Assembly: GCA_964396385.1 (NCBI GenBank)
Contig: CAYNFH010000002.1
Location: 1,047-65,046, forward strand
Length of the DNA stretch: 64,000 nucleotides
DNA from: an uncultured Chthonomonadaceae bacterium
GTDB taxonomy: Bacteria > Armatimonadota > Chthonomonadetes > Chthonomonadales > CAJBBX01
Direction: 5' to 3'
Shown: one piece after another, positions 2,054 through 63,108 of the stretch
How positions within the stretch are numbered: the first letter of the stretch is position 1
Layout of the letters: each line of letters opens with the position of its first letter
Translations under genes and position numbers: made by a program
The notes under the pieces: generated by a model
What the model was told of the DNA's origin: nothing
What the model saw: only the letters and a program-made list of their open reading frames with translations
Database searches by the model: none

Positions 2054-2270
2054 GAGTCTAGAGTCGCGAGTCGAGAGAACGGATTCCTCAGGAGGGCCGG
2101 TGGGTATGCACCCTGTAATCTTCGCGTGAGATCGTTGTCGCAAATCTGGCGCGGCGGCGCCACATTGCGGGCGGAGTCGAGAGTCGAGAGAGCGGATTCA
2201 GGAGGAGGGGCGGCGTGAGACATTGTCTCAATTTGGCGCTGCGACGCCAGATTCGAGTCCTCCGCCTCGG
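2054..2270. repeat. Two tandem ~100-118 bp composite units: GAGTCGA heptamer array, CGGATTC core, then a short hairpin
   Basis: Unit 1 starts gagtctagagtcgcgagtcgagagaacggattcc and unit 2 starts gagtcgagagtcgagagagcggattc. Both continue through ...gtgaga...gtc.caa.t.tggcgc...gcgcca.att.cg. Confidence 0.7.
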
Positions 2271-2299
2271 GCGCGGGCTGAACCGGCACTTCTCCCGCC

Positions 2300-2321
2300 A
2301 TTTGACACGCGCGTGTCAAAT
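2300..2321. repeat. Perfect 22-bp palindrome ATTTGACACGCGCGTGTCAAAT (operator-like or hairpin)
   Basis: Read directly; the reverse complement is identical. It lies in a ~1 kb region with no convincing CDS. Confidence 0.9.
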
Positions 2322-2457
2322 CAGCCTCCTGGGAATGTGGCGCCGGCTCCGTGTGGCCGGCGGCTGAAGCCGCGCCAACAGGTAAAGAGAGTCCGCCTGC
2401 GCGGACGCGGGATGTAGTGGCGGCACGTACCTTGCGCATGGCGGTGAGCTGTGCGGT

Positions 2458-2652
2458 CTACTGGTCCGGGGGGATGCTGCCGCTTTCGGCCTGTTTGAGC
2501 CAGAGGAAGCGCTGCTCCTGGGGAATGAGGCTGCGGCCGCCTTGCTGCCATTGCTCAAGGGACTCGGTCCAGGAGGAGGGGTCCGGTAGCAGGAGGACGG
2601 TGGAGACTTCCAGATCCTCCCGGTGGGTCTGCGGGGACGTGTTCTTGTGCAT
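2458..2652 (-). CDS. Hypothetical small protein (64 aa), weak call
   Basis: The internal ATG of the 2458-2715 ORF is preceded by GAAGGAAAG. The stretch is locally lower in GC and the sequence is non-repetitive (MHKNTSPQTHREDLEVSTVLLLPDPSSWTESLEQW...). No family recognised. Confidence 0.3.
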   Translation of the reverse strand: MHKNTSPQTHREDLEVSTVLLLPDPSSWTESLEQWQQGGRSLIPQEQRFLWLKQAESGSIPPDQ

Positions 2653-2956
2653 GAGTTTCTTTCCTTCATCCGGAATCTCCCAGGCTCCGGATACAGGGGC
2701 GTTTCTTGCAGCCATGTGTGGGGTGGGCCTCTCGGGCGAGCCTCCGCCGCCCGGTGCAGTAGAAACGATGTGGCAGCTTGGCAGGCCGGGCGTCGCCTCA
2801 CCCTGCCGACCCTCCCCACGCCCCTCCCGCAGATTCCGGAACGCAGCCGCGCGGCGCGGCTGCCTGGTTTCCCGCTGTACTAGCTTCGGACGGTCATGGC
2901 ATCCGTGGTCACCCAGGAACTCGGGGCTAAGTCGGCGGCAACACGAAGGGCAAGAT

Positions 2957-3205
2957 ATGGCTTATAGGGCGAATGTGCATCGGGCAGAAGAGGGCGGCTA
3001 CTGGGCGGAAGTTCCCGAGCTTCCAGGCCTGGTCACGGAAGCGGACAGCCTGAATGCGCTGATGGACAACCTGAACGACGCCATTCAGGGTTGGTTGGAA
3101 GCAGATGCCAAGCAGAATCCTGGACGACAAGTCCCTGAGTCAGCCGCCTCAACGCCAGCTAGAGTGGGACCTTCGAGTTCGTCGCGTGAAGTCCGTTTCA
3201 CGTAG
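2957..3205 (+). CDS. hicB: HicB-family antitoxin-like protein (UPF0150 fold)
   Basis: Only the last 82 codons of the 2351-3205 ORF look real. MAYRANVHRAEEGGYWAEVPELPGLVTEADSLNALMDNLNDAIQGWLE is a classic HicB N-domain, and GAAGGG lies 6 nt before ATG 2957. Confidence 0.7.
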   Translation: MAYRANVHRAEEGGYWAEVPELPGLVTEADSLNALMDNLNDAIQGWLEADAKQNPGRQVPESAASTPARVGPSSSSREVRFT

Positions 3206-3213
3206 CGCCATCG

Positions 3214-3578: not shown

Positions 3579-6650
<3,072 letters not shown>

Positions 6651-10046: not shown

Positions 10047-10967
10047 CTATCGAATCCTATCTGCGTATGGTTTTTCGTGGGCGAGGAGGCGTTTGCGACG
10101 GCTGATGGCGACGTGGTCCGGGTACTTGCCGGCGTCGTGGTCCAGGCCGGTGTCCCGATCCAGGAAGAGCGGGAAGTCCGTGGCGGGCGGCTTGGTGTGG
10201 TCGTAGGCGTAGCTGTAGGATCGCATGATGATCCGCTGCTCCCGGTTGAGGGTCTGGAGCCACTCCGGGTCGTTCTGCAGCCGGTCCGCCGCCACGATCC
10301 AGGAGGGACAGTAGGCCAGGAAGATGTTCTTGCGGACCGTGTCCGTCTCGTTGGGCTCCACGCGGTGCCAGACGTTGCAGTTCATGAGGGTGATGGTGCC
10401 GCGCGGAACGCAGAGGACCATCTCGTCCGGCACGCTCTCGTGGGTGTCGTAGTAGGGGAAGTACTGCTCCCGCTGGGAGCGCGGGCGCATGACGATGTTG
10501 CCCATGCGCGGGTGCGGCAGATCCGTAAGCCAGTAGCCTATCTTGATCTGGCACGGCAGGTCCGGCGAGAATACCTGGTACGGCACGGCCCGTGCGCCAT
10601 CCGGGTGCCACTTGTTGTAGTCGCCGCCGCGAGGCCGCACGAAGAACTGGGAGAGGTGGAGCTTCAGGAGCTCGCCATAGAAGTCGTAGACGTAGCCGAC
10701 GTGGCGAGGATGGTCGATCAGCTCGGCGAAGACGGGGTCCAGCTCCACGATGTTCTCGCGAGCGTAGAAGCGCGACGGGTCGAAATGCTCGTCCTTGTGG
10801 ATGTGGCGGTCGATGGCATCTATGTAGCGAGCGATCTCGTCGTCCGTGAGGCGGTCCGGGAGGATGAGGTAGCCCTCGCGCTCGAAGAACTCGCGCTGCT
10901 CCGGGGTGAAGCCCGGTGGTGCGAGGCGGTATGTAGACTCGGTTGGGTCCTTTAACGTGGTTGTCAT
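10047..10967 (-). CDS. Phytanoyl-CoA dioxygenase (PhyH) family Fe(II)/2-oxoglutarate oxygenase
   Basis: FFEREGYLILPDRLTDDEI, WHPDG and NVWHRVEPNETDTVRKNIFLAY. Confidence 0.85.
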   Translation of the reverse strand: MTTTLKDPTESTYRLAPPGFTPEQREFFEREGYLILPDRLTDDEIARYIDAIDRHIHKDEHFDPSRFYARENIVELDPVFAELIDHPRHVGYVYDFYGELLKLHLSQFFVRPRGGDYNKWHPDGARAVPYQVFSPDLPCQIKIGYWLTDLPHPRMGNIVMRPRSQREQYFPYYDTHESVPDEMVLCVPRGTITLMNCNVWHRVEPNETDTVRKNIFLAYCPSWIVAADRLQNDPEWLQTLNREQRIIMRSYSYAYDHTKPPATDFPLFLDRDTGLDHDAGKYPDHVAISRRKRLLAHEKPYADRIR

Positions 10968-11007: not shown

Positions 11008-11097
11008 TGTCATTCTGAACCAAGTGAGGGATCTGCTTTTCTCCGGCAGAGTACGCTCCGTTACCGTAAAGCAGATTCCTCGCGGAGCTCGGGATGA
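11008..11097. repeat. REP/MITE-like palindromic element (GTCATTC...GGGATGAC termini)
   Basis: Left arm gtcattctgaaccaagtgagggatctgc and right arm gcagattcctcgcggagctcgggatgac are inverted repeats. The flank gatgacaggttggtgcg is shared with the copy near 4115. Confidence 0.75.
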
Positions 11098-11151
11098 CAG
11101 GTTGGTGCGCTCAAGGGTCCCTTCCTACAACTAGGCGCTTGTGCCGTCGGA

Positions 11152-11694: not shown

Positions 11695-12810
11695 GTGGGA
11701 GCGAAAGGGGGGCGTGTGTCCTATCTCTGGTACTGGCCGTCAGGAGGGTGGGATTTCGAGCGGTGGCGGGACGGCTGCTCGTGGACGCCGGTGCGGGGGC
11801 CGCAGTCCGGACAGAAGGACCTCCGGCCTCCAATCCCGCGACGCGAATCTCTGCAAGAGTGGGAGGCTCTTCGGCCGGAGCTGCTGAGACTGACATGTGA
11901 GCTGCTGGGCGAAGTATCGGACTCACCGCCTGCCGAGATGCGCTGGGAGACGCTGGAGGAGTTTCCAGGCACCTCTTACCAGCTACGCCGCATCCGCTAC
12001 TCGCTCACGGACCGGGAGTGGGGCTACGCCTGGCTGCTGCTCCCTCGCGAGACAGACTCGCCACGACCCGCGGTGATCGCGCTGCACCAGACGGTGCCGC
12101 AGGGCAAGGACGAGCCCGTAGGAATCGAAGGCGATCCGGCGCTGGCGTACGGGCGAGAGCTGGCCGAGCGCGGGTTTGTGGTCCTGGCACCGGACGCGGT
12201 GGGGTTCGGGGAGCGGCGCATGGACCAACCGGGCGCCCTCTACCGGAGCGCCGACCGCTTCTTCCAGGCACACCCGGAGGGCTCCGTCATGGCGAAGATG
12301 GCGTTCGACACCTCGCGCGCGGTGGACTTCCTGGAACGGATGCCGGAGGTGGATTCCGCGCGCATCGGCTGCATCGGGCACTCCCACGGCGGTTATGGAA
12401 CGCTGTTCGCGATGCTGCGGGATGAGCGGATCCGCGCCGGGGTGATTAGCTGCGGCGTCACGCCCCTCCGGACCGACCCTACGCCGGAGCGCTGGTGGCG
12501 CCGAACCGCTCTCATCCCGAGGCTGGGCCTGTACGAGAGCGCGATGGAGGGGACGCCGGTGGACTTCCACCAATGGATCGCGCTCCTCGCGCCGCGGCCG
12601 GTGTTCCTCTCCGCCGCGCTGAACGACGCCATCTTCCCGAACACCGAATCGCTGCGGCGCCTCGCACGGCGGGCGCGTTCGGTGTATGGGGTGTACGGCG
12701 CGGTATCCTGTCTGCGCCCGTGGATCTTTCACGGACCGCACTGCTTCCCGCGTGAGGCGCGGACCAGAGCGTACCGGATGCTGGAGGAGACGTTTTGCTC
12801 ATTCCGATGA
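11695..12810 (+). CDS. Alpha/beta hydrolase (dienelactone hydrolase / acetyl-xylan-esterase-like); start uncertain
   Basis: Nucleophile elbow GHSHGG within IGCIGHSHGGYGTLFA, plus ALHQTVPQGKDEPVG. The N-terminal ~60 codons of the ORF may not be translated. Confidence 0.75.
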   Translation: MGAKGGRVSYLWYWPSGGWDFERWRDGCSWTPVRGPQSGQKDLRPPIPRRESLQEWEALRPELLRLTCELLGEVSDSPPAEMRWETLEEFPGTSYQLRRIRYSLTDREWGYAWLLLPRETDSPRPAVIALHQTVPQGKDEPVGIEGDPALAYGRELAERGFVVLAPDAVGFGERRMDQPGALYRSADRFFQAHPEGSVMAKMAFDTSRAVDFLERMPEVDSARIGCIGHSHGGYGTLFAMLRDERIRAGVISCGVTPLRTDPTPERWWRRTALIPRLGLYESAMEGTPVDFHQWIALLAPRPVFLSAALNDAIFPNTESLRRLARRARSVYGVYGAVSCLRPWIFHGPHCFPREARTRAYRMLEETFCSFR

Positions 12811-15548
12811 TCCTTCTCACGACTATGTCAGCCCACCCCGCCCATAGCGTCTTCTACCCGCCTGCGCTGGTGGCACGGGCGCGGGAGAACATCCGGCGCG
12901 GGGGATGGGCCGCCCAGGAGGGAGACCGGCTGGTGGCGGCGGCCCAGCCGTGGATGCGCATGCCGGACGACGAGCTGTGGCAGCTCATGTTCGGGAACAC
13001 CATCCGCAGGAGCTGGATGGTGTGGTCGAACGGGTTCTGCCCTGCCTGCAAGCAGCCGGTGCCCATGTACACCTGGGAGATAGACGCCCTCCGCACGCCG
13101 TGGAAGGTCCGCTGCCCCCACTGCGGGGAGCTGTTTCCCAAGAACGACTTCGCCCGTTTCTACCGCTCCGGACTGGATGAACACGGCATCTTCGAACCGG
13201 CCAGGGCGGACCGGTCTCTGCTGTACAACACGGAGCACCCCGATCCGCACGACCCGCTCCACCTGTTCGGCGTGGATGATGGCGAGGGCTACGTTCAGGG
13301 CGACCATCGCTGGCGCTTCATCGGCGCTTACCTCATCTACGGCCAGTGGAAGCAAGCCGTCTATGGGGGCATCGTTCGCCTGGCGGCGGCATACACCTTG
13401 ACCGGCGACCGCGCCTATGCCCATAAGGCGCTGGTACTCCTCGACCGCGTGGCGGACCTCTACCGCACGTTCGACTTCGGCCGCGAAGGCGTGATGTACG
13501 AGGGCCCGCCCAGCGCCGGATACGTCTCCACGTGGCATGACGCCTGCGAGGAGACACGTGAGCTGGCTCTGGCGTGGGATCAGGTTCGGGACGCACTGGA
13601 CGGCGACACGGGCCTGGTGGCGTTTCTTTCCGAGCAGGCTCACCGCTACGCTCTCGACAATCCCAAAACCACAGCCGAAGACATCCGCCGCAACGTAGAG
13701 GACCGCATCCTGCGGGACGCGCTGGCGCATCGAGACAGGATCCACTCCAACTATCCGCGGACCGAGATAGCCGTGGCGACTATCCTCACCGTGCTAGGGT
13801 GGCCCGAGAACCGGCAGGAGGTGCTTAGCCTGCTGGATCCGGTGCTGGATAAGTCCACGGCCGTGGACGGAGTTACGGGCGAGAAGGGGCTGGCGGGCTA
13901 CACCGCTTTCACCATTCGCGGGGTTGCTCTGCTCCTGGCGCAGTACGACCGGATGGACCCCACATTTCTGCCGGAGATGCTGCGCCGCCACCCGCGCCTC
14001 CATGCCATGTTCCGCTTCCACGTGGATACCCACTGCCTCTCGAGATACTATCCGGAGGTGGGGGATTCCGGTGGCTTTGCACAGCCTGTACCCACTTACC
14101 AGGGAGTCTCCTTCAGCTCGAATCCCGGCCTGGAGCCGAGTATGTACGGCTTCCTCTGGAGGCTATACCAGATCACCGGTGATGCTGCGTTTGTCCAGGC
14201 TCTGTACCAGGCAAACGGAGGCAAAGCGGACGGGCTGCCGTACGATCTGTTCGCAAAGGAGCCTCCGGCGTTCCAGCGGGGCGTACTGCAGGTCATCGCT
14301 CGCGAAGGTGTCGAGCCGCGGCTGCGCAGCGTCAACCTGAAGGAGTGGCATCTCGCGATACTCCGCTCCGGGCAAGGCGCGAACAGGCGGGCCGTGTGGT
14401 TGGAGTACGACAGCGGCGGGCCGCACGGCCACAAGAACGGCCTCAACCTGGGGCTGTTCGCGCACGGGCTGGATCTGCTGCCGGACTTCGGCTATCCGCC
14501 AGTCCAGTATGGCGGATGGTCCTCTCCCCGCGCCAACTGGTACCGTGCCACCGCGGCCCACAATACGGTGGTCGTGGACGGCCGGAACCAGCCCGACGGC
14601 GCGGGGACGTCCACGATCTGGGCGGACGGCGAGCGGTTTCATGCCGTCCGCGGGAACGCTCCAGCGCTGAACGGCGGGCACGAGTACGAGCGGACCATCG
14701 CGCTGGTGGACGTCTCCGACCGGGACGCCTACGTGGTGGACCTGTTCCGCGTGCAAGGCGGAGCGGACCACGCCATGTTCCTGCACGGTCCCTTCGGTAC
14801 GATCCAGGTCGAAGGCTTACCGCGCTCCCCTGCCCCGGAGTATGGACACGACGCGCTACTGCGCGACTTCCGCGGCGGGACACCCGCGGCGGAGAGCTGG
14901 TCCGCAGAATGGAATGTGGAGGACCGGTACCATGTGGCGTTGCCGGGCGCGCAAGTGCGTCTGCGCTGTACCGAACTGACCCGTGGCGCTCGGGGTTTTA
15001 CCTGCGAAGCCTGGGTCTCGCCCAGCGGCTTCCAGCAGACCGAGGAGGCCTGGATCCCATGCATCGTGGTCCGCCGCGGTAAGGAGGACGGAGGACCGAG
15101 GATGGGGGACGGACGGATCCCCCAGGCGCTGACGTCTACTTTTGTGTCCGTGCTGGAACCGTACGAGGGCTCTCGCGCTGCAAAGTCCATCCGCAGGCTG
15201 GATCCGGACGGGCAGGATTCCGAGGCGGTCGTGGAGGTCGGGCTTTCGGACGGGCGGCGTGACCTGCTGGCGGCACAAATGACCCAGGGTGCCCTCACGG
15301 AGCGAGGTTGGCGCCTGCATACGGACGCGGAGCTGTGCCATGTCCGGCGCGCCACGGATGGGCACGTGGAGCACATCGCCCTTTGCCACGGCAGCTTCCT
15401 GCAGGTGGGAGTGGTAAGACTGACGCTAACTGAGCCGGTAGAATTCGTGGAGGTGGCACTGGAGGGCAGCGGCGCCCGGATCGTGGGCGACAATGGTGCG
15501 ATCGTGAAGACGCTGACGGTTCGCGGGCGCACCGTCCCGGTGCGATGA
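12795..15548 (+). CDS. Heparinase II/III-like polysaccharide lyase family protein with N-terminal Cys4 ribbon
   Basis: GGPHGHKNGLNLGLFAHGLDLLPDFGYPPVQY...AAHNTVVVDGRNQ is the heparinase II/III C-domain signature. The ribbon is CPACKQ...CPHCGE. TTG 12795 overlaps the upstream stop; alternative ATGs are at 12807 and 12825. Confidence 0.8.
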   Translation: MLIPMILLTTMSAHPAHSVFYPPALVARARENIRRGGWAAQEGDRLVAAAQPWMRMPDDELWQLMFGNTIRRSWMVWSNGFCPACKQPVPMYTWEIDALRTPWKVRCPHCGELFPKNDFARFYRSGLDEHGIFEPARADRSLLYNTEHPDPHDPLHLFGVDDGEGYVQGDHRWRFIGAYLIYGQWKQAVYGGIVRLAAAYTLTGDRAYAHKALVLLDRVADLYRTFDFGREGVMYEGPPSAGYVSTWHDACEETRELALAWDQVRDALDGDTGLVAFLSEQAHRYALDNPKTTAEDIRRNVEDRILRDALAHRDRIHSNYPRTEIAVATILTVLGWPENRQEVLSLLDPVLDKSTAVDGVTGEKGLAGYTAFTIRGVALLLAQYDRMDPTFLPEMLRRHPRLHAMFRFHVDTHCLSRYYPEVGDSGGFAQPVPTYQGVSFSSNPGLEPSMYGFLWRLYQITGDAAFVQALYQANGGKADGLPYDLFAKEPPAFQRGVLQVIAREGVEPRLRSVNLKEWHLAILRSGQGANRRAVWLEYDSGGPHGHKNGLNLGLFAHGLDLLPDFGYPPVQYGGWSSPRANWYRATAAHNTVVVDGRNQPDGAGTSTIWADGERFHAVRGNAPALNGGHEYERTIALVDVSDRDAYVVDLFRVQGGADHAMFLHGPFGTIQVEGLPRSPAPEYGHDALLRDFRGGTPAAESWSAEWNVEDRYHVALPGAQVRLRCTELTRGARGFTCEAWVSPSGFQQTEEAWIPCIVVRRGKEDGGPRMGDGRIPQALTSTFVSVLEPYEGSRAAKSIRRLDPDGQDSEAVVEVGLSDGRRDLLAAQMTQGALTERGWRLHTDAELCHVRRATDGHVEHIALCHGSFLQVGVVRLTLTEPVEFVEVALEGSGARIVGDNGAIVKTLTVRGRTVPVR

Positions 15549-17470: not shown

Positions 17471-17520
17471 GTCGAGAGTCGTGAGTCGTGAGACCGGATC
17501 CGGGTGTTCAGGTGTTCAGG
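17467..17520. repeat. Heptamer-array element: (GAGTCGW)n - GACCGGATCCGG - (GTGTTCA)2
   Basis: gtgagtcgagagtcgtgagtcgtgagaccggatccgggtgttcaggtgttcagg; the stop codon of the membrane-protein gene lies in the first unit. Confidence 0.85.
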
Positions 17521-20709: not shown

Positions 20710-20802
20710 GGGATGAACGGCGGAGCGGGTGAGCGGGCGAGTGGGCGAGCGGGCGAACCCGAAGTCCGGTCTCACGACTCACGACTCACGACTCACGACT
20801 CG
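20696..20802. repeat. Triple heptamer-array element: (GATGARG)3 - (GGGCGAG)4 - CCCGAAGTCCGG - (TCACGAC)4
   Basis: Read directly. It spans the DegT stop and the first ~30 codons of the 20713 ORF. Confidence 0.9.
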
Positions 20803-21831: not shown

Positions 21832-21858
21832 GGGATGAGGGATGAGGGATGAATCCGG
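21829..21858. repeat. Heptamer array (GAGGGAT)3 + GAATCCGG
   Basis: tgagggatgagggatgagggatgaatccgg. It contains both the upstream stop codon and the ATG at 21849. Confidence 0.9.
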
Positions 21859-29272: not shown

Positions 29273-29295
29273 TCTTGGCAGGCTGGGCACGTTCC

Positions 29296-43278: not shown

Positions 43279-43293
43279 CTCTATCCTCCTTGA

Positions 43294-43337
43294 GGACCAC
43301 AGACCACAGACGACAGATCACTCCGGAATCCGTGGTC
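43294..43337. repeat. Heptamer array (CCACAGA)3 + TCCGGAATCCG core
   Basis: ggaccacagaccacagacgacagatcactccggaatccgtggtc. Confidence 0.85.
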
Positions 43338-43431
43338 CCCCAACCCTCGAATCAGTGGTGGGGCTGGCACTCCGGCCCATGGTCCGTGGTCCATGCGCGC
43401 ATCGGGTAGCATAGCGGAGAATCCCTTAGCA

Positions 43432-43465
43432 CTGAACGCCCGAACGCCTGAACGCCTGAACGCCC
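43432..43465. repeat. Heptamer array (TGAACGC)4 ending at the GTG start of the glycosidase gene
   Basis: ctgaacgcccgaacgcctgaacgcctgaacgccc. Confidence 0.85.
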
Positions 43466-48357: not shown

Positions 48358-48380
48358 GTTGATGCTCCCTTCAAACCTGG

Positions 48381-48421
48381 CGCTCAGGCGTTCAGGCGTT
48401 CAGGTCCGACGTCAGAACGCC
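48381..48421. repeat. Heptamer array (CAGGCGT)3 with short hairpin, in the spacer between fdhB and the nrfD-like gene
   Basis: cgctcaggcgttcaggcgttcaggtccgacgtcagaacgcc. Confidence 0.8.
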
Positions 48422-49261: not shown

Positions 49262-49276
49262 AGCAGTCTCCTAGAG

Positions 49277-49343
49277 ATTTTCAATTTTCGATTTTCAATT
49301 GCCGGCCCGCAAGTCCGAAATGGAAAATTGGAAATTGAAAATC
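49277..49343 (-). other. 24-bp AT-rich imperfect hairpin formed by two complementary heptamer arrays around a GC-rich loop, between fdhA and fdhB
   Basis: attttcaattttcgattttcaatt (49277-49300) pairs with aatggaaaattggaaattgaaaat (49319-49342). That is 21/24 Watson-Crick pairs plus 2 G-U, with an 18-nt loop gccggcccgcaagtccga. Confidence 0.8.
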
Positions 49344-52300
49344 ACCTGAACTGTCCTTCCGGCTGCGCAGCCCTCGGGGTATCCGGGGCCGGTTCGCGAG
49401 TGGGCCAGGGAGCGTAGGGCTGCGTCGGCTCCGTGGGCGTCTCCTCCACCCGGCCGGGGCGCACCTGGCAGGAGAACACCTTGCCCTCGTGCATGCTCAC
49501 GTTGGGATCCGCCACCAGCGAGGTAAGGTCGTTGGCGTTGCTGCCCACGGTCTCCCCGGCGTAGCCCCAGTGGAACGGCAGCCCGATCTGGTGAATGGTG
49601 CGCCCCTCCACCACCATCGGGCGAATGCGGCGGGTCACCATGGCGCGCGCAGAGATGGAGGCGCGCGCCGTGCTCACGGTTACCCAGCTCCCATGCTGGA
49701 TGCCCCTCTCGGCCGCCAGCTCCGGGCTCATCTCCACGAACATCTCCGGCTGGAGCTCGTTGAGCCAGCTATTGAACCGGCTCATGGGGCCGCTCAGGTA
49801 GTGCTCCGTGAGCCGGAACGTGGTGCCGACAATCGGGTACTCCTCGGTCGGGCCCTGCGCGATAACGTTGAGCGGCCCCTCGAAGAGGCGAACGGTGGGG
49901 CTCTCCTGCTGCTTGTACAGGGGATTGCGGACGGGAGACTCCACCGGCTCGTAGTGGGTGGGGAATGGCCCGTCCTTGGTGCCGCCCGGCGCGAAGATCC
50001 AGCCGCGGCCATCCGGCTTCATGATGAACGGCGCGTCGCCTGCGATGGCCTCCATGCCCTTCGCTCCGGGGCTTGGGCGGTAGTCCGGCGGCTTGTTAGG
50101 CTCGAAGTCCGGCTCATCGATCCCGACCCACTTCCGCTCCTTCTCGTCCCACCAGATGTACTTCTTCCGCTCCGACCACGGACGGCCCTGCGGGTCTGCC
50201 GAGCAGCGGTTGTACATCATGCGACGGTTGTGCGGCCAGGCAAAGCCCCACTCCGGCTGCACCCGGTTGTTGGTGATCTTCCGCTCCCGCGCCCGGTTCC
50301 GGTTGTACGCGGGGAAGACGCCGCTGTAGATCCAGCAGCCGCAGGCGGTAGTCCCATCGTCCTTGCACTCCGAAAAGCCGCTCAGGAGCAGGGGCTTGCC
50401 GTTGTTGGGATCGGTCTGATTCAGGTGGTATCCATTAACCTCCTGCATCACTTTCTCTACGTCCGGCTCGCCTTCTATGCGGGTCATACGGCCGTCCGGC
50501 AGTCGGGGCGGATCCTCGTGCTCGTACTCCCACGTGAGGTTCTGGATGGCCGCGTCCCGGGGATCCAGGGAGCCGGCGTACATCGCCTTGAGCCGCTTGC
50601 CCAGGTTATAGACAAACCAGGCGTCCGAGCGACAGTCGTCCGGAGGGTCCACGGCCTTGTCGTGCCACTGGACCAGGCGCTGCGTGTTGGTAAAGCTGCC
50701 CTCCTTCTCCGGGGCGGCGGCGGCCGGCACGAAGAAGACTTCCGTCTTGATCTGGTCCGGCGGCGGGCCGGTCGGATCGTTTTTCCAGAAAGTAGCGCTC
50801 TCCGTCTCAAACCAGTCCGCCACCACCAGCCAATCGAGCTGGCGGAGTCCCGCCCGGTGCAGGCCCGCGTTGGGGCCGCCGCCGCCAGGGTTCTGGCCGA
50901 AGAGGAAGTACCCTTTCATCTCGCCGCGACTCATACGGTCGAAGGTGGGGAGCTGCGAGTAGTCGCCATCCAGCCGCGGGATCCAGCCGAAGCCCCAGTC
51001 GTTCTCCTTCGTCGCGGCGGGGCCGAACCACGCCTTGAGCAGGCTCACCGCGAATTTCGGGAAGTTAGCCCAGTAGCCCTCTGTCATTCCCTCATAGTCG
51101 CAGTAGCCCTGTAGGGTGCTATGGTGCTCGTCCGCGATGGGCTGCGGCAGGTAGCCAGGAAGCAGATCGTAGAGGGTCGGGATGTCCGTGGAGCCCTGGA
51201 TGGAGCAGTGGCCGCGGAGCGCCATAATGCCTCCGCCCGGGCGGCCCATGTTGCCCAGCAGAAGCTGGATAATGCCGGCCGTGCGGATGATCTGAACTCC
51301 CGTGGTGTGCTGCGTCCAGCCGACGGCGTAGCAGATAGCGCTGGTCCGATCCGGTCCCGAGTTGCGGCAGAGCGTCTCCGCGACCTCGATTAGCTCTTCC
51401 GGCGAGCAGCCGCAAATGTCCGCGACCACCTCCGGCGTGTACCGCTCGTAGTGGCGGCGCAAGTACTGGAATACGGAGCGCGGGTTCTGCAGAGTCTCGT
51501 CCCGTGGGGGCTGGCCACCCGGCTCCTCCGTGGGACCGGACTTGCGCGAAGTATGGGAGCTGGCGCCGCCCATCAGGCCGGGGCCGTGGACGCCGTGGCG
51601 CCCGGACTGGGATTTGGCCTCTCCCCCACCGGCGCGCGTCTCACCTTTCGCCGCTTTACGGCCCTTGGCCTGGGCCTTCTCCTCCGCCGTGGACCCGGCG
51701 TACCCCCACTTGCCCTTGGCGCTGTCGTAGGTATGCTGCTCCGGGTTGTAGCCGCTGAAGATGCCCCCAAGCTCCTCCGCGTCCTGGAACCCCTCCTCCA
51801 CGATGGTGGACGCGTTGGTAAAGGCGAGCACGTACTCCTTGAACCACCTGTCGCGGGTCAGGATGTAGTTGATGATGCCGCCGAGGAAGGCGATGTCACT
51901 GCCGGCGCGGATCTGCACGTGCCGGTTGCACATGGCGGATGTGCGCGAGAAGCGCGGGTCCACGTGGATGAGCGTGGCGCCCTTCTCGCGCGCCCGCATG
52001 GGATAACGGAACCCTACCGGATGGGCCTCCGCCATGTTGGAGCCCATGATCAGGATGCAGTCGCTATTCTCAAGGTCTTGCTGGAAGGTGGTGGCCGCTC
52101 CGCGTCCAAAGGAGGCGCCCAGACCGGGCACCGAGGCGGAGTGTCATATACGGGCCTGGTTTTCGATGGAGAGAACCCCCAGCCCGCCGCTGAACAGCTT
52201 CTTGATAAGGTAGTTCTCTTCGTTGTCAAGCGTGGCTCCGCCGAGGGTCCCGAATGACTTTACAGGCGGGTTGTGGGGTATGCCGGTATTGGTTGAGGGT

Positions 52301-52779
52301 TGAGGGTTGAGGGTTGACAAGCCGGGATCCGGATTCCGCTCTCTCGGCTCTCGACTCTGGACTTTCGACTCCGGTTGCTCCCCCTCTCTCAGTTCCGCGT
52401 CTCGCGTCTCCTTCACGCGGCGCGCGATCTGTTCCATCGCCCACTCCAGCGTCCTCGTCTCCCACCGGTCGGAGTAGGGAGCACGGTACAGGACCTGGGT
52501 GATGCGGTGCGGGTTGACCGCGAGCTGATAGCTATTGGCGCCCTTGGGGCATAGCGTGCCCTCGTTGATGGGGCTGCGCGGGTTGCCCTCGATGTCTATC
52601 ACCTTGCCGCGTTTGGTGTAGACCAGCAGGCCGCATCCCACGGCGCAGTACGGGCAGACGCTCTCCGTGACGGTGGCGCCCTCTATGCGCGGATGCTTCT
52701 CGATGGACTGGGGGCTGTACGGCTGCGGCGGCTTCTGGGCCGCCTTATTCGCGTTGAGGCGGTACGGACTCAAGGCCAT
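49342..52779 (-). CDS. fdhA: Formate dehydrogenase catalytic (alpha) subunit, molybdopterin oxidoreductase, selenocysteine-containing (UGA at 52144-52146)
   Basis: The two track ORFs (49342-52131 and 52144-52974) are one gene: IENQARI-UGA-HSASVPGLGASFGRGA parallels E. coli FdnG/FdhF around Sec. N-terminal CPYCAVGCG Fe-S motif. GGAGGAG SD before ATG 52779. Confidence 0.9.
52098..52143 (-). promoter_or_regulatory. SECIS-like hairpin immediately 3' of the UGA
   Basis: mRNA is UGA CAC UCC GCC UCG GUG CCC GGU CUG GGC GCC. The upper stem GGUGCC/GGCGCC carries a CGGUCUG loop. GGUCUG lies the same distance from UGA as I recall for E. coli fdhF. An outer stem CUCCGC/GCGGAG is also possible. Confidence 0.65.
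52291..52374. repeat. Composite heptamer element (GAGGGTT)4 - GCCGGGATCCGGATTCCGC - (degenerate GAGTCGA)n inside the fdhA CDS
   Basis: ggttgagggttgagggttgagggttgacaagccgggatccggattccgctctctcggctctcgactctggactttcgactccgg, encoding ESKVQSREPRERNPDPGLSTLNPQPST. Confidence 0.9.
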
Positions 52780-53010
52780 GCGGAAACTCCTCCGGAAAGG
52801 GCGCGTTGCGCCCGACGCTACATCTCGCGGCGCGACACGGCAGCCCTCAAGGCTTGACGGCCCGGCCCGACCGCAAGTTCCCTTGCCTGCCGGGCCGCCA
52901 ATTCCTTCGGATTTCGATAAGCCGCCGCTCGATTCCCGCCATGCCTCAGGGAGCGCCGCCCCGATCCTGTGCAAGCCTGTCGCAGGGTGACTCGGTGGCG
53001 GTTCGAGTGT

Positions 53011-55114: not shown

Positions 55115-55270
55115 CCTCCCGCCGTTGAATACGCTACGTCAAGAAGGCGGAAGGAAGAGCAAAATGCGGCGGAGAGTGAGTGAGGCGGGGTTGGCGCCGG
55201 CGAGCGAGGGGCGGCTGCTGGCGCTGCTGGGCACGGCGCTCGGGGCGGTCATGGGCGAGCAGCAGCAGAA
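55115..55270 (+). repeat. Left copy of a ~160-bp direct repeat (diverged duplicate of the esterase promoter and 5' end)
   Basis: cctcccgccgttgaatacgct...ggaagagcaaaatg...ggcgccggcgagcgaggggcggctgctgg...gggcgagcagc matches 56228-56385 with scattered mismatches. Confidence 0.75.
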
Positions 55271-56227: not shown

Positions 56228-56385
56228 CCTCCTGCCGTTGAATACGCTGCCTTAGGAAGATGGAGGGAAGAGCAAGATGGGGAGCGGAGTTGGGGCGGGA
56301 ATGGCGCCAGCGAGCGAGGGGCGGCTGCTGGCTCGGCCTGGCGCAGTGTCGGGGGCCGCAGTCACGGGCGAGCAGCGGCTGGGGA
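56228..56385 (+). repeat. Right copy of the ~160-bp direct repeat (functional 5' end of the esterase gene)
   Basis: See 55115-55270. Confidence 0.75.
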
Positions 56386-58550: not shown

Positions 58551-61070
58551 ATGGCGCTTACGGTGGATCGGCCAAAGGAGGCCCCGTCAGCGCCTAATCC
58601 GTGGGAGAACCCCAAAGGCTGGATGGGCGTGCTCTGCACCATCGACAACCAGTCCCTGGGGAAGATGTTCATGGGTACGGCCGTGGCGTTCTTTCTTCTG
58701 GCAGGGCTGATGGCCGTGCTCATGCGGACTCAGCTTGCTTCGCCGGAGAACCACTTCCTGGGGCCGGAGGTGTACAACCGCCTCTTCACCATGCACGGCT
58801 CGACCATGATGTACCTTGTGGTGGTGCCGTTCCTGGAGGGGCTGGGCATCTACCTCCTGCCCATGATGCTCGGCTCCCGCGACGTCGCGTTCCCCTACAT
58901 CACCGCCTTCAGCTACTGGACCTACCTGATGGGCGGCATCACCTTCTATGGCAGCTTCCTGACCGGCGGGGTGCCGAATGTGGGCTGGTTCGCCTACCCG
59001 CCGCTGGCCGGCCCGAACTACTCCGGCATCGGCACCGACTTCTGGTCGCTGGCGCTTACGCTCGTCTCCGTGGGCGACCTGGCGGCCGGCGCGGGGCTCA
59101 CGGTGAGCGTGATCAAGCTGCGCGCTCCCGGCATGTCCATCAACCGGATGCCGCTCTTTGCGTGGACGTGGCTGGTTACGGGCGTGATGATCACCTTCGC
59201 CTTCACCACGCTTTTCTGCATCACCACACTCATGCTGCCCCTGGACCGGTCCATCAATACGCACTTCTTCGACCCGAACCACGGCGGCAGCACCCTGCTC
59301 TGGCAGCACCTGTTCTGGTTCTTCGGCCATCCGGAGGTCTACATCATGTTCATCCCTGCCACCGGGATCGTTTCTTCCGTGCTGCCGGTCTTCGTCCACA
59401 AACCCATCGTCGGCTACACCTACATCGCAGTGGCCATCGTTATCACCGCCTTCGTAAGCTTCGGGCTCTGGGTCCACCACATGTTTGCAACGGGGCTTCC
59501 ATGGCTTTCCATGAGCTTCTTCACCGCCGCCAGCCTCATGATCGCCATCGCCAGCGGCATCCAGGTGTTCGCGTGGATCGCGACGCTCTGGGGTAGCCGG
59601 CCGCGCCTGACTGTCCCCATGCTCTATCAACTGGGCTTTGTTGCGCTCTTCGTGGTAGGCGGACTGACGGGAGTGATGGTCGCCATCGTGCCGTTCGATT
59701 GGCAAGTCCACGACACGTACTTCCTGGTAGCGCACTTCCACTACGTGCTGATTGGCGGCGTGGTCTTTCCCACGCTGGGCGGCATCTACTACTGGCTGCC
59801 CAAGATGACGGGCCGTATGCCGAGCGAGCGGCTGGGTCACTGGAGCTTCTGGCTGGCCTTTATCGGCTTCAACGTGGCGTTCTTTCCCATGCACCTGATG
59901 GGATTCGCCGGGATGCCTCGCCGCGTCTACACCTATGCGCCGGGGCTGGGCGTGAGCGGCTACAACTTGACCTCTACCATCGGGGCATATATCGTGGCCA
60001 CAGGTTTCCTGCTGTTCGTGCTGAACGCCTACCTGAGCGCGCGTACCGGTACGCGCGCCGAGCCGGATCCGTGGGCGGCCGACTCCCTGGAGTGGCTGCT
60101 GGCGTCGCCGCCTCCCAACGACAATTTCCGCACGCCGCCCATCGTCCACAGCCGGCACCCGCTCTGGTCGGAGCGCTCGGCCGAGCTGGGCAGCCCGGAC
60201 GAGATGCGGGTGCGGGAAGCGATCCACGATACGCCGCGCGGCTGGCGCATCGCCCTCTCGACCACCGTGCTCAACGCGCAGCCGGAGGCGCTCCAGCCGT
60301 GGCCCAAGCCCAGCATCATTCCTTTCGCCGCGTCGGCCACTCTGACGGTGCTGCTGCTGGGCTCCATCGCCAAGTCCAACGCCATGATGCTGGTAGGTAC
60401 GCTCGCGACGCTGCTGATCGTGGCGCGATGGTTCCGGCCGGAGGACGAGCTGCTGGACACACTGCGGGACAGCGGCCTGGAGGAGAAGGCTGGCCTGCCG
60501 CTGGTGACGAGCGGTCCCAAGACGATGGACTGGTGGGGAATGCTCTTCTGCTTCGCGGTGCTGGGCGTGGTGTACGGCAACTTCCTCTACTCTTACTTCT
60601 ACATCCGGCTGTACTCGCCGTCGTGGCCGCAGGGTCACATCGCGAGGCCGGATCTCTTGGCCGGGGCAGTGCCCTACGGGCTCCTGGCGGCGAGCATCGT
60701 GCCGCAGATGATGGCCAGCCGCGCCTTCCACGCCGACAATGCCATTCGCGCGAAAGCGGGACTGGCGCTGAGCACTTGCCTGGGCGCCATCGTGTTCGCA
60801 CTGCTGTTCATGGGGCTGCACAGAATGAAGTTCCACTACGACACCAACGCCTACGGATCACTCATCTTTGTGATGACGTGGGTGCTGGCGGGTAACATCG
60901 CGGCGGCGTGCGGGGTGAATGTGGGGGCGCAGCTCCGGCTGTGGCGCGAGGGCACGCGGAAGGATAGATACGTGGCGCTCCAGGTGGAGCGCGCCGCCTA
61001 CTTCTGGGCGCTGACGGTGGGGATAGGAGTTCTACTCTATCTGGTGCTGTATGTATCGCCGTACCTTTGA
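58551..61070 (+). CDS. ctaD: Cytochrome c oxidase subunit I fused to subunit III (caa3 type)
   Basis: WFFGHPEVYI, HHMF and VAHFHYV heme-copper ligand motifs. A ~280-aa subunit III-like C-terminal extension follows. Confidence 0.95.
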   Translation: MALTVDRPKEAPSAPNPWENPKGWMGVLCTIDNQSLGKMFMGTAVAFFLLAGLMAVLMRTQLASPENHFLGPEVYNRLFTMHGSTMMYLVVVPFLEGLGIYLLPMMLGSRDVAFPYITAFSYWTYLMGGITFYGSFLTGGVPNVGWFAYPPLAGPNYSGIGTDFWSLALTLVSVGDLAAGAGLTVSVIKLRAPGMSINRMPLFAWTWLVTGVMITFAFTTLFCITTLMLPLDRSINTHFFDPNHGGSTLLWQHLFWFFGHPEVYIMFIPATGIVSSVLPVFVHKPIVGYTYIAVAIVITAFVSFGLWVHHMFATGLPWLSMSFFTAASLMIAIASGIQVFAWIATLWGSRPRLTVPMLYQLGFVALFVVGGLTGVMVAIVPFDWQVHDTYFLVAHFHYVLIGGVVFPTLGGIYYWLPKMTGRMPSERLGHWSFWLAFIGFNVAFFPMHLMGFAGMPRRVYTYAPGLGVSGYNLTSTIGAYIVATGFLLFVLNAYLSARTGTRAEPDPWAADSLEWLLASPPPNDNFRTPPIVHSRHPLWSERSAELGSPDEMRVREAIHDTPRGWRIALSTTVLNAQPEALQPWPKPSIIPFAASATLTVLLLGSIAKSNAMMLVGTLATLLIVARWFRPEDELLDTLRDSGLEEKAGLPLVTSGPKTMDWWGMLFCFAVLGVVYGNFLYSYFYIRLYSPSWPQGHIARPDLLAGAVPYGLLAASIVPQMMASRAFHADNAIRAKAGLALSTCLGAIVFALLFMGLHRMKFHYDTNAYGSLIFVMTWVLAGNIAAACGVNVGAQLRLWREGTRKDRYVALQVERAAYFWALTVGIGVLLYLVLYVSPYL

Positions 61071-61115
61071 GGGTTCAGGGTTCGGGGTTCAGGAGTCGGA
61101 GATCCGGGTCCGAAG
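61068..61115. repeat. Heptamer array (GGGTTCA)3 + GAGTCGGAGATCCGGGTCCGAAG, starting at the ctaD stop
   Basis: tgagggttcagggttcggggttcaggagtcggagatccgggtccgaag. Confidence 0.85.
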
Positions 61116-61134
61116 CGCAAGCCGGAGGTGAGCG

Positions 61135-61587
61135 ATGGCGAGTGAACACAAGAGTCCGGATTCATCCTTCATCCCTCATCCTTCATCCCTGCCGTCGCAG
61201 GACGTCCCGGTGAGCCCGCGCATCCTCTGGTTCAGCCAGTTGGGCGGCGCGGTGGCCTGGGTGCTGCACCTGACCGGTTCCTACTCCGTCGGCGAGTGGG
61301 GCTGTGCCAGCCCGTTTGCGCGGGACCAGTTCCTCTCATTGACTGGACCAGTCTGGCTGCTCTTCGTGGTGACGGCGACAGCCATGGCTCTGGCGCTGGC
61401 CGCCGCGTGGACCGGCCATCGTGCCGAGGCGGAGCTACGCGCAAAGGAGCGCTTCCCGGGGCGAGTGGGCGAGACACGACACCCTGGGATCTATATGGCG
61501 AGATCCGGCCTTATGACCAGCGGACTGTTTGCGTTCATTATCCTGGTGCAGTCCGTTCCGACGTTCTATTTCTTGCGGAGCTGTTAG
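61135..61587 (+). CDS. Small membrane protein in the oxidase operon (possible subunit IV-like); start uncertain
   Basis: Three hydrophobic segments. The first ~20 codons (SPDSSFIPHPSSLP) are encoded by a heptamer array. Confidence 0.5.
   Translation: MASEHKSPDSSFIPHPSSLPSQDVPVSPRILWFSQLGGAVAWVLHLTGSYSVGEWGCASPFARDQFLSLTGPVWLLFVVTATAMALALAAAWTGHRAEAELRAKERFPGRVGETRHPGIYMARSGLMTSGLFAFIILVQSVPTFYFLRSC
61152..61190. repeat. GAGTCCGGATTC core + (ATCCYTC)4 array
   Basis: gagtccggattcatccttcatccctcatccttcatccct. Confidence 0.85.
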
Positions 61588-61628
61588 TGGCTACGATCTA
61601 CGGTGTAGGCATACCGTGGTTCAACTGA

Positions 61629-62474
61629 GTGGGAATACAAGTGTTTAGAGTGTGGACGGCGTGGGACCTGGATCCGACGCTGCTTCTGGGGCTGGCGCTG
61701 CTCTGGTGGCTCTATGGTCGCGGCCTATTGGAGCTCTGGACGAGGGCCGGCGTGGACCACGGCGTCTCCCGCAGCCATGCCTGGGCCTTCCTCGGCGCCA
61801 TGGCCGCGCTGCTCCTGGCGCTCGTGAGTCCCCTGGACGGGCTGGCGGAAGACCTCTCTTCCGCGCACATGGCCCAGCACATGCTGCTCATGCTGGTGGC
61901 TGCGCCGCTGCTGGCCATGGCCGCACCGCTACCGGCCCTTCTGTGGGGTCTGCCGCCAGTAGCACGCAAGATGCTGGCCCCCGCAATCCAGCGGCTCGAG
62001 ACACTCAAGTGGGCCTCGTACCACGCATTCCAGCCTCTGTTGGCCTGGTGGCTCTTCACGGGGACGCTCTGGATCTGGCACGTGCCGCGCCTGTATCAGG
62101 CGGCGCTGCGCAGTCCTGTGCTCCACGATCTGGAACACCTTTCATTCCTGCTGACCGCCTATCTCTTCTGGCGCATAGTGCTCGATCCGGCTGCGCGAAG
62201 CCGGATGAACCGAGGTGCAGGCGTGATCTACTTGTTCGCCGCCTGTCTACAGGCGGGCGCGCTGGGGATCTTTCTTACACTCTCGCCTTCCGTCTGGTAC
62301 CCGGCCTATGCCTCGAGGGTCGCGGCGTGGGGCCTCACTCCCCTGGAGGACCAGCAGCTTGCCGGACTGATCATGTGGGTACCCGGCTGCGCCATCTACG
62401 CCGGGGCCGCGGCAGCCGTGTTCGCCGCGTGGCTCCGGGAGCCTGGCTTGGCGGATGAGGGGGTGAGAGGGTGA
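61629..62474 (+). CDS. ctaG: Cytochrome c oxidase assembly factor CtaG (caa3 CtaG family membrane protein)
   Basis: SAHMAQHMLLMLVAAPLL, HDLEHLSFLLTAYLFW and IMWVPGCAIY. Confidence 0.85.
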   Translation: MGIQVFRVWTAWDLDPTLLLGLALLWWLYGRGLLELWTRAGVDHGVSRSHAWAFLGAMAALLLALVSPLDGLAEDLSSAHMAQHMLLMLVAAPLLAMAAPLPALLWGLPPVARKMLAPAIQRLETLKWASYHAFQPLLAWWLFTGTLWIWHVPRLYQAALRSPVLHDLEHLSFLLTAYLFWRIVLDPAARSRMNRGAGVIYLFAACLQAGALGIFLTLSPSVWYPAYASRVAAWGLTPLEDQQLAGLIMWVPGCAIYAGAAAAVFAAWLREPGLADEGVRG

Positions 62475-62492
62475 AAAGGGTGAGGGGGTGAC
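62454..62492. repeat. Heptamer array (GGGTGAG-like)5 spanning the ctaG stop and the next start
   Basis: gatgagggggtgagagggtgaaaagggtgagggggtgac. Confidence 0.8.
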
Positions 62493-63108
62493 AGTGGGCA
62501 CGCCACAAGAGCGGACATCGTGGGCACCGCTCCTAATTGGCCTCGGAGCTGTTGCACTAGCGTCCATGGCCGCGATCCTGGCGCTGCGACACTGGGTCCG
62601 TCCGGAATCCGGCCTCTCACCTCTCACCTCTCACCTCTCACCTGAACCACCCCCTCACACCTCGCCGCCTCCGGACCCGAAGGAAGAGCATGAGCGGTCG
62701 GCAACCGGCAGCAGGCTCTCGGTGCTGCTGGCGGGGAGCGGTTTCGCTTTGCTGGCGCTCCTGGTGGGCTCCCTGGCGCTGGGTGGACTGCAGCGGCATC
62801 CGGCGCCGCCCCTGTGGCAGGTGCCAGGCGGCAGCTCAGACCGGGGCAAGCAGGCCATCCGCCGCTACGGGTGCGGCGGGTGTCACACCATCTCGGGAAT
62901 CCCGGAGGCGGCTGGACGCGTAGGGCCGCTGCTGCTGGACTTCCGCCGGGAGGCCTACATCGTGGGCCGGCTGCCGAACGTCCCCCACTACCTGGTGATA
63001 TGGCTTCAGAATCCCCAGCAGTACGAGCCGGGCAGCGCCATGCCCAACCTCGGTATCCCCGAATCCGATGCCCGCGATATAGCAACCTACCTGTACGGAA
63101 ACCCCTAG
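62488..63108 (+). CDS. Membrane-anchored monoheme c-type cytochrome
   Basis: Two hydrophobic segments, then CGGCHTISG...MPNLGI. The linker PESGLSPLTSHLSPEPPPH is encoded by a heptamer array. Confidence 0.75.
   Translation: MTVGTPQERTSWAPLLIGLGAVALASMAAILALRHWVRPESGLSPLTSHLSPEPPPHTSPPPDPKEEHERSATGSRLSVLLAGSGFALLALLVGSLALGGLQRHPAPPLWQVPGGSSDRGKQAIRRYGCGGCHTISGIPEAAGRVGPLLLDFRREAYIVGRLPNVPHYLVIWLQNPQQYEPGSAMPNLGIPESDARDIATYLYGNP
62596..62663. repeat. Exact CCGGAATCCGG core + (CTCTCAC)4 array inside the cytochrome c CDS
   Basis: gtccgtccggaatccggcctctcacctctcacctctcacctctcacctgaacc... Confidence 0.9.

Follow-up and report, generated by a model that had tools for sequence, protein, structure and literature searches.

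The DNA considered here is a 64-kb stretch (64,000 nucleotides, called the window throughout; GC 60–70%) of contig CAYNFH010000002.1, from an uncultured Chthonomonadaceae bacterium. It carries a family of very short repeats, in which tandem units of 7 or 8 nt are often joined to a palindromic core, CCGGAWTCCGG, and which lie between the genes as well as inside some of them. Comparison of the loci shows that these copies would have been spread by copying, by insertion or by recombination at the core. The gene map on which the analysis relies was built from third-position GC, Pfam matches and homologues. The best named matches of the window proteins are found in metagenome-assembled genomes (MAGs) of Armatimonadota, at about 70% identity.

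The arrays were listed by Tandem Repeats Finder, and those with at least three copies were counted. Seventeen have a period of 7 and six a period of 8, with four at all other periods combined, whereas 50 dinucleotide-preserving shuffles gave means of only 0.22 and 0.30 (maxima 2 and 4) for periods 7 and 8, respectively. The 81 control loci from other genomes (1.38 Mb) contain 1.6 period-7 arrays per 64 kb. When exact arrays of at least three copies are considered, five are found at period 7 and none at periods 4–6 or 8–12; the arrays with 100% matches are those at 20771, 21829, 22170, 52291 and 62613. A genuine and pervasive family, as proposed in a first-pass annotation of this DNA, is confirmed by this enrichment over shuffled controls, and every array named there is in the Tandem Repeats Finder list. 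The same annotation described the units as heptamers, which holds for the 17 arrays of period 7 and has to be amended for GAGCGGGC, TGAACGCC, GCCGATGA, GGTGTTCA and TGAGAGGG, which are octamers. The window has at least 10 different types of unit, some of 7 nt and some of 8 nt.

The core CCGGAWTCCGG, with at most one mismatch allowed, is matched 12 times versus 2.6 expected, a number reached in none of 100 shuffles. It was correctly located beforehand, with an exact copy at 62602 and 10/11 matches at 43323, 47940 and 52329; a second exact copy lies at 25481, without any array. A core-like motif is found within 12 nt of 11 of the 24 arrays, as compared with 1.9 by random placement (a count of 11 came up in none of 5000 placements). 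Alignment of the loci oriented on the core also bears out the existence of array-core-array composites. The loci are as follows, M1 to M5 being the modules described in the next section.

2054–2089, plus strand: M1 module, (GAGTCKN)3.4 then GAGAACGGATTCC, then AGGAGG; within a poorly coding stretch of about 1 kb, 3' of the VOC-family open reading frame (ORF) 1559–1930
2174–2199, plus strand: M1 module, (GAGTCGA)2.4 then GAGAGCGGATTC, then AGGAGG
15083–15113, plus strand: imperfect array, (GGAGGAC)4.4 with 75% matches, within ORF 12795–15548 (heparinase II/III-like)
17464–17520, plus strand: composite of M1 (GTCGTGA)4.1, core CCGGATCCGG and (GGTGTTCA)2.2; the M1 array includes the stop codon 17468–70 of gene 15545–17470
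20697–20801, plus strand: three-array spacer, (GGATGAR)3 with the stop 20707–09 inside it, (GAGCGGGY)4.2, a 14-nt centre and (CTCACGA)4.4, a reversed M1
21829–21859, plus strand: M2 module, (TGAGGGA)3.4 then ATCCGGA; includes the stop 21829–31 and ATG 21849
22138–22200, plus strand: 63-nt composite (21 codons), (GAGCGGGC)2.2, GCGGAATCCGC, (CTCACGA)4.4; in-frame in the DHDPS-family gene 21849–22991
31560–31583, minus strand: M3 module, GGGTTCR three times on the minus strand; directly 3' of the stop 31584–86 of minus-strand gene 31584–33425
40389–40415, plus strand: array (GACGACY)3.9, within the minus-strand ORF 35936–41011 (1691 aa), whose product has no Pfam match
43295–43333, minus strand: array-core, (GACCACA)3.9 then CCGGAATCCGT; upstream of AAGGAGG and the ATG of gene 42334–43278
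43434–43466, plus strand: M4 array, (TGAACGCC)4.1, abutting GTG 43466 of a glycoside hydrolase ORF
47902–47950, plus strand: array-core, (GCCGATGA)4.1 then CCGGATTCCGA; within the minus-strand NrfD gene 47359–48357
48379–48404, minus strand: M4 array, with the unit TGAACGCC read on the minus strand; in the gap that separates the FeS subunit stop (48422) from the ribosome-binding site and start (48357) of NrfD
49277–49342, no single strand: inverted pair, (ATTTTCA)3.4 and (AAATTGA)3.6, forming a hairpin, without CCGGA core; occupies all of the spacer between the FDH alpha stop (49342–44) and the FeS subunit's ribosome-binding site
52291–52371, plus strand: 81-nt composite (27 codons), (GGTTGAG)3.9, CCGGGATCCGGATTCCGC, (CTCTCGR)4.4, a degenerate reversed M1; in-frame within the minus-strand selenocysteine FDH alpha gene
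61070–61110, plus strand: M3 module, (AGGGTTC)3.4 then GGAGTCGGAGATCCGGG; its first base is the third base of the COX1 stop (61068–70)
61155–61190, minus strand: reversed M2 module, TCCGGATTC then (ATCCYTC)4; in the first 20 codons of ORF 61135–61587
62456–62491, plus strand: M5 array, (TGAGRGGG)4.4; includes the ctaG stop 62472–74 and GTG 62488 of the next ORF
62602–62643, minus strand: reversed M5, CCGGAATCCGG (the exact core) followed by (CCTCTCA)4.4; in-frame within the cytochrome c ORF 62488–63108, in the linker 3' of its membrane anchor

Shared junctions and dispersed copies

When the loci are oriented on the core and compared by short-word self-BLAST, the same array-core junctions recur. 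The M1 junction, (GAGTCGW)n-GAGA-N-CGGAWTCC, is found at six loci (2054, 2174 and 17464 on the plus strand; 20771, 22170 and 52341 on the minus strand), with identities of up to 97% over 35 nt; the copy at 2174–2199 and the reverse complement of 52335–52357 share 96% identity over 23 nt. The M2 junction, (GGATGAR)n-ATCCGGA, occurs at 21829 (plus) and 61161 (minus), with a core-less form at 20697 (plus), and the stretch 61155–61190 shows 96% identity over 27 nt with the reverse complement of 21833–21859. In M3, a stop codon is followed by (GGGTTCR)3-GGARTCG both at 61070 (plus) and at 31560 (minus), and the two copies (61069–61094 and 31560) are 96% identical over 26 nt, their variant units coming in the same order. 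M4, (TGAACGCC)n, is present at 43434 (plus) and 48379 (minus), with 96% identity over 23 nt between the stretch 43434–43466 and 48379–48401 in reverse complement, and M5, (GGTGAGAG)n, at 62456 (plus) and 62613 (minus). Inverted pairs are seen at 49277/49318, 62456/62613 and 43434/48379, in addition to the array-core-array composites. Since the loci share the unit, the junction and the order of variant units, and do so in both orientations, dispersal by copying is argued for rather than independent slippage at each site. These common junctions, and the TGA richness considered below, had been overlooked in the first-pass description, which had seen the family itself.

Beyond the core, the M1 module has GTGTTCAG, GCCCGCTC or CAACCCT as its partner array, or none at all, which suggests that the core acts as a joint between half-elements. 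The aligned flanks of its six copies share no more than an incomplete unit (CG) ahead of the array, and no flank is duplicated. Slippage has acted after dispersal, because sister copies differ in the copy number of their arms: the stretches 20743–20801 and 22142–22200 are 90% identical over 59 nt, with an identical right arm (4.4 units) and a left arm of 4.2 versus 2.2 units. The M1 junction was found in none of 246 other loci, including 80 metagenomic contigs with GAGTCGW arrays.

Placement in operons and inside proteins

Non-coding DNA, roughly one-tenth of the window, contains about 15 of the arrays, and coding sequence nine, so the earlier statement that the arrays fill operon spacers holds. 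Five arrays contain or overlap the stop codon of the upstream gene (17468–70, 20707–09, 21829–31, 49342–44 and 62472–74), and further stop contacts are seen at 61068–70 (overlap) and 31584–86 (abutting); the overlap with the array end is of a single base at 49342–44 and 61068–70. The start codons ATG 21849 and GTG 62488 are inside arrays, and GTG 43466 abuts one. Most of the stop and start contacts listed at the outset are therefore in, overlapping or abutting arrays, with the exception of the stop at 48422, which is 17 nt from the nearest array. The 17-nt spacer 21832–21848 lies wholly inside (TGAGGGA)3.4: the array provides the stop, the GAGGG and the ATG, with the GAGGG 7 nt 5' of the ATG, one unit before.

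The arrays at 20697–20801 resemble an N-terminal extension of the epimerase ORF. The stretch 20723–20801 had been taken for N-terminal coding sequence, an assignment rejected by orthologue comparison: the orthologue of the epimerase starts at residue 55 of ORF 20713–21831. The arrays are thus most likely intergenic, as judged from this alignment, rather than an N-terminal extension of the epimerase ORF.

Several arrays had been described as in-frame within conserved genes. Homologue alignment upholds this for FDH alpha and for the DHDPS-family protein, where it shows the composites to be clean in-frame insertions lacking in orthologues. Compared with 13 homologues (47–74% identity), FDH alpha has about 29–30 extra residues, lacking in 13/13, in a loop that separates the Fe4S4 domain from the molybdopterin domain. 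The DHDPS-family protein has about 17–20 extra residues (net +17 aa), lacking in 11 of 13 homologues (67–75% identity). The other two hold unrelated insertions in the same loop, which suggests that this loop is permissive. In the AlphaFold model of the protein, the pLDDT is 64–67 in the inserted stretch versus 94–96 in the flanking blocks. The NrfD array is a different case: it occupies a variable inter-helix loop that is only about 5–8 residues longer than in homologues and thus is not a clean insertion. NrfD gave no match in a PDB sequence search.

An in-frame TGA at 52144–52146, in the motif ENQARI-U-HSASV, divides the FDH alpha gene (49342–52974, minus strand) into two ORFs, and this UGA almost certainly encodes selenocysteine. 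The RNA just 3' of it (UGACACUCCGCCUCGGUGCCCGGUCUGGGCGCC) can form a hairpin with a GGUCU apical loop, with a z-score of only -1.1; we take this hairpin to resemble the SECIS element of Escherichia coli fdhF. As a separate observation, a GC-rich hairpin, CCCCTCTCC-N8-GGAGAGGGG (-20.2 kcal/mol), lies at 2011–2036, just 5' of the first arrays. A similar one, CCCTCTCCC/GGGAGAGGG, at 10255–10330 of another locus (L204), is part of a 53-residue in-frame insertion in the homologue P0222, and this insertion occupies the same DHDPS loop that carries the heptamer element in the window.

TGA, or its complement, is present in 15 of 23 array units, as compared with 13% of random window heptamers. As 7 and 8 are coprime with 3, three such units in tandem close every reading frame with a stop. 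The TGA of in-gene copies lies on the antisense strand in every case, or has been lost, which would follow from the closure of all frames by sense-strand units. Within the FDH element, CTCGRCT replaces the perfect complement CTCAACC in the arm where a sense TGA would result, and the 11 G-U pairs of the element can be accounted for by the purging of TGA from the sense strand of the in-gene arm. Selection for an antisense RNA had been considered for this G-U asymmetry and was dropped, stop-codon purging being simpler. At gene ends, the TGA carried by the units would explain why five copies supply the stop of their host gene, and sometimes its last few residues.

Folding does not define the family. 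Significant hairpins (z < -2, either strand) are predicted at only 4 of 19 loci (49270–49345, 52285–52375, 43285–43345 and 22130–22205), and the hairpin was rejected as a defining feature on that count. The one at 49277–49342 has predicted energies of -27.5 kcal/mol on the plus strand (z = -4.6) and -21.4 on the minus strand (z = -2.6). That at 52291–52371 reaches -45.1 kcal/mol on the plus strand (z = -3.75), and -21.1 on the mRNA (minus) strand. The minus-strand hairpin at 43295–43333 is estimated at -28.9 kcal/mol (z = -3.5). Two of the four end at a ribosome-binding site. Most single arrays are less structured than their shuffles (z of +0.5 to +1.9). An Rfam search of the window gave no match, and no tRNA gene was found in it. 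A G-quadruplex motif (at least four G3 tracts, loops of 1–7 nt) fits only 2 of 24 arrays (20727–20753 and 62459–62488), and GAGTCGW, the most frequent unit, is devoid of G3 tracts; the G-quadruplex explanation was rejected since only these two arrays fit.

Other repeats are found in the window. A 40-nt element (AGCAGATYCCTCGC...GCTCGGGATGACAGGTTGGTGCG), unrelated to the heptamer family, occurs twice, at 4092–4131 and 11070–11109, with 90% identity. At 4186–4255, within the span of ORF 3579–6650, a 21–22-nt tandem array repeats the related motif GCTCGGRATGACA about three times. A 24-nt sequence with the palindrome AATGGGTATTTACACCCATT is present at 29250–29273 and 30997–31020 (96% identical); placed at both ends of the minus-strand gene 29296–30927, it could be an operator or promoter site. 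A 31-nt stretch (GGCGCCGGCGAGCGAGGGGCGGCTGCTGGC) is shared by 55192–55222 and 56302–56332 at 97% identity, and a 158-nt stretch by 237–394 and 5476–5633 at 82%, the latter probably as paralogous coding sequence. Two other features show no link to the repeats: a XisI-family ORF (31095–31511), which adjoins the 31560 array, and a HicB/UPF0150-like antitoxin domain (about 2966–3205), which ends ORF 2351–3205.

Related repeats in other genomes

The array-core-array architecture had not been recognised in the first-pass annotation, but it does have a precedent, the closest being the elements of Geobacter metallireducens. One of them, as described in the genome paper (Aklujkar et al. 2009, PMC2700814), has 49 copies, between and within genes, of four tandem heptanucleotides. 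Three further classes consist of opposite-strand paired sites of 3–5 tandem 7–9-mers, one of the units being MTYCTGA, and the authors' guess was that the elements are binding sites for global regulators (PMC2700814). The Gmet_H4 element and Gmet_I classes 1–3 share with the window 3–5 tandem units of 7–9 nt, a multicopy nature and both intergenic and intragenic positions. There are dozens of copies per genome, also in operon gaps, and they are so far without an assigned function, like those of the window. Opposite-strand pairs at variable distance are common to both, and MTYCTGA contains TGA, as do most window units. The Geobacter elements are species-specific, being absent from G. sulfurreducens. 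There are also differences. The units GGACCGG, GTTGCTYN, TCTCCGTS and MTYCTGA do not form any dimer in the window; a CCGGA(W)TCCGG-type core, present in the window, is not reported for the Geobacter elements in the text consulted, nor does that text demonstrate for them the in-frame insertion that orthologue comparison supports here. The hosts differ as well, Geobacter being a deltaproteobacterium and the best protein matches of the window coming from Armatimonadota MAGs.

Two other analogies, with the cyanobacterial STRR and with the Rickettsia palindromic elements (RPEs), had been drawn from the start and are fair ones. Like the window arrays, the STRR are short tandem heptamer arrays at many dispersed, mostly intergenic loci, and STRR-type arrays are often near start or stop codons and sometimes in inverted pairs. 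Their units are CCCCAGT (STRR1), TTGGTCA (STRR2) and CAACAGT (STRR3), none of which occurs as a dimer on either window strand. STRR-type families have one or few units per genome, whereas the window has at least 10 types plus an attached palindromic core, and the hosts of the STRR themselves are (heterocystous) cyanobacteria, unlike the best protein matches of the window. RPEs resemble the window elements in being short, dispersed, both intergenic and in-frame in conserved genes, with an added peptide lacking in orthologues. With a length of about 100–150 bp, they form one stable palindrome over their entire extent and do not consist of tandem heptamers, whereas the window elements measure 25–90 nt and fold significantly at 4 of 19 loci.

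REP/BIME elements and MITEs are likewise small non-coding interspersed repeats, found in operon spacers in both orientations and sometimes head-to-head. REPs are extragenic, imperfect palindromes of 20–40 bp that go with a RAYT gene and are defined by a GTAG or CGTC tag (PMC3733652); the window modules have no such tag at their ends, mostly lack a stable stem-loop and include in-gene copies. Nor was any RAYT or transposase gene, terminal inverted repeat or target-site duplication, as in the REP and MITE systems, seen in the window. Heptamer repeats have also been described in Nostoc (GGGGAYT) and Xanthomonas (GGGAATC) (PMC4692102), and in Beggiatoaceae, where TAACTGA repeats lie just 5' of start codons (PMC4679880). 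Chloroflexus aurantiacus has a species-specific, dispersed family of 14-nt satellites (PMC6749651). The previously known units of related heptamer families are absent from the window, and literature string searches with the array dimers and the core gave no relevant match. To our knowledge, neither an origin mechanism nor a function has been established for the heptamer arrays of STRR, Geobacter, Beggiatoaceae, Xanthomonas or Chloroflexus.

Arrays of this type can be even denser elsewhere. A 22-kb locus of a Chloroflexia MAG (L075; OY969916, with an 11.3-Mb chromosome) contains 15 period-7 arrays, mostly same-unit inverted pairs that form hairpins (GAGATTG/CAATCTC, AGAACAA/TCTTTGT, TGAAACG/TTCACGT), with no CCGGA or other common core and no stop-codon enrichment. 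TGA is found there in 4 of 15 units against 3.9 expected, and TGA enrichment was therefore rejected as a general rule of heptamer arrays; in metagenome loci it is only about 1.6–2-fold. A metagenomic locus of 63% GC (L203), which holds the orthologous epimerase/DHDPS operon, has arrays of its own (GCTGATG/GCTATCA, GATGCWG, CTATCAA), with a 9-mer array in the equivalent spacer and no core anywhere in the locus. The stretches 1476–1673 and 16921–17030 of L203 also contain a long inverted pair, (GCTGATG)9.9...(GCTATCA)6, and an array of 18 TCTTCC hexamers. When metagenomes were scanned for (GAGTCGW)3GAG, the array was found in at least 120 contigs of 38–74% GC, many of them with the array in hairpin form, and no core stood next to a GAGTCGW array among the matches listed. 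The fetched metagenomic contigs (403 kb) have 187 period-7 arrays of many different units, together with 14 of period 8 and 20 of period 6. In viral contigs, composition-matched permuted heptamers form arrays in 10, 13 and 13 contigs versus 5 for GAGTCGW. As the permuted units are at least as common, GAGTCGW is not special, and its status as a universally conserved motif was rejected.

Origin and meaning of the repeats

The reading that we favour, and to which we would give an even chance, is that of a lineage-specific, ultra-short repeat family of array and core. Its copies would be copied or recombined at the core, reshaped by slippage and kept where they are tolerated, TGA dictating their orientation inside genes and supplying stops at gene ends. 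An element would measure about 25–90 nt, with a module of 3–4.4 tandem 7- or 8-nt units and a CCGGA(W)TCCGG-type palindrome that meets them at a fixed junction. A pair of modules, in many cases with different units, would be placed head-to-head on this palindrome and so give the array-core-array composites. Dispersal would proceed by copying, insertion or recombination at the core, with slippage coming afterwards, and copies would presumably persist in operon spacers, untranslated regions and protein surface loops, where extra sequence can be accommodated. Lineage specificity and turnover are suggested by the different, core-less arrays of the orthologous L203 operon and by the absence of the M1 junction from the 246 other loci. 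Effects on expression, through the four hairpin loci, the GAGG-type ribosome-binding-like motifs and the unstructured tracts by the starts, are likely to be side effects that may have been co-opted.

Several points weigh against this reading. No Pfam match to a transposase or recombinase gene was obtained in the window, and its loci showed neither terminal inverted repeats nor target-site duplications nor empty sites, so that the mechanism of spread is one that we infer. There is no close relative in which a presence/absence polymorphism could be seen (in a COX1 scan of genome contigs, relatives reach at most 51% identity), no well-studied mobile element is as short as these, and the data cover 64 kb of one genome. 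Moreover, the exact abutment to stops, ribosome-binding sites and starts could reflect a selected function.

This last point leads to a regulatory explanation, possible and yet somewhat doubtful in our view, in which the arrays, with or without the core, would be cis-regulatory sites. On DNA they could bind a multimeric global regulator or nucleoid protein; on mRNA they could act as a three-frame stop barrier, as ribosome standby or ribosome-binding-phased tracts, as coupling hairpins, or as processing or stability signals. Such a role is consistent with the position of arrays exactly between the stop and the ribosome-binding site or start in at least nine spacers, with the unit of 21829–21852 that gives a GAGGG 7 nt 5' of the ATG of the next unit, and with a copy number steady at 3–4.4. 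The single arrays that fold less than their shuffles would be accessible single strands, two of the four significant hairpins end at a ribosome-binding site, and similar hypotheses were put forward earlier for Geobacter (PMC2700814) and for the Beggiatoa TAACTGA repeats (PMC4679880). However, the modules lie in both orientations to transcription and are antisense to the mRNA within genes, the orthologous spacers of L203 hold unrelated arrays, at least 10 unit types are hard to fit to one binding protein, and there is no Rfam match. A bolder version of dispersal, which we consider unlikely, is that these are undescribed ultra-short mobile or recombining elements: the core would join and exchange half-elements, the TGA arms would serve as three-frame stops for intercistronic punctuation, and the same machinery would write protein loops, including one in a selenoenzyme.

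Slippage alone offers another account, in which each array would have arisen on the spot by slipped-strand mispairing, its unit seeded by a stop codon (duplication of the stop plus 4 nt being neutral), and the similarity between loci would be coincidence or convergence. We regard this as quite improbable. Heptamer microsatellites are over-represented in many bacteria (as reported in PMC4692102, citing a 2007 survey), arbitrary heptamer arrays are common, as illustrated by the permuted units in viral contigs and the many units in the metagenomic ones, and five window arrays begin at or contain a stop codon. Local slippage nevertheless leaves unexplained the array-core junction at six loci, the near-identical copies of 59 nt and of 26–36 nt in both orientations, the association with the core (11 of 24 arrays versus 1.9) and the clean insertion of whole composites in the FDH and DHDPS-family genes. 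The first-pass annotation had also raised slipped-strand phase variation, in which gain or loss of a 7-nt unit at contingency loci would shift the frame or the spacer length, and this now appears very unlikely indeed. Neither 7 nor 8 is a multiple of 3, the five 100%-match arrays are perfect, and sister copies do differ in unit number (4.2 versus 2.2). Against it, the arrays have only 3–4.4 units, many of them imperfect, and lie in spacers or in housekeeping hosts (FDH alpha, NrfD, the DHDPS-family enzyme and the cytochrome oxidase operon) rather than in contingency-type genes such as surface or restriction-modification genes, which carry a long homogeneous tract in the promoter or the 5' coding region; in-gene copies are mid-protein, where a frameshift would destroy the enzyme. 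The one other assembly that turned up (Logan SRR12266077) covers a gene free of arrays.

Heptamer elements as such were already known from STRR and Geobacter, and those of the window would be a lineage-specific form of them, with a CCGGA(W)TCCGG core joined to the arrays. The window is an unusually clear case for three reasons: the shared array-core junctions argue for dispersal by copying, two insertions in conserved enzymes are dated by their absence from homologues, and the TGA-rich units give a simple rule as to where, and in which orientation, copies can survive. For gene annotation, array elements mislead gene callers into false N-terminal extensions, and the gene call of FDH, already broken by the selenocysteine UGA, has its array close to that codon.

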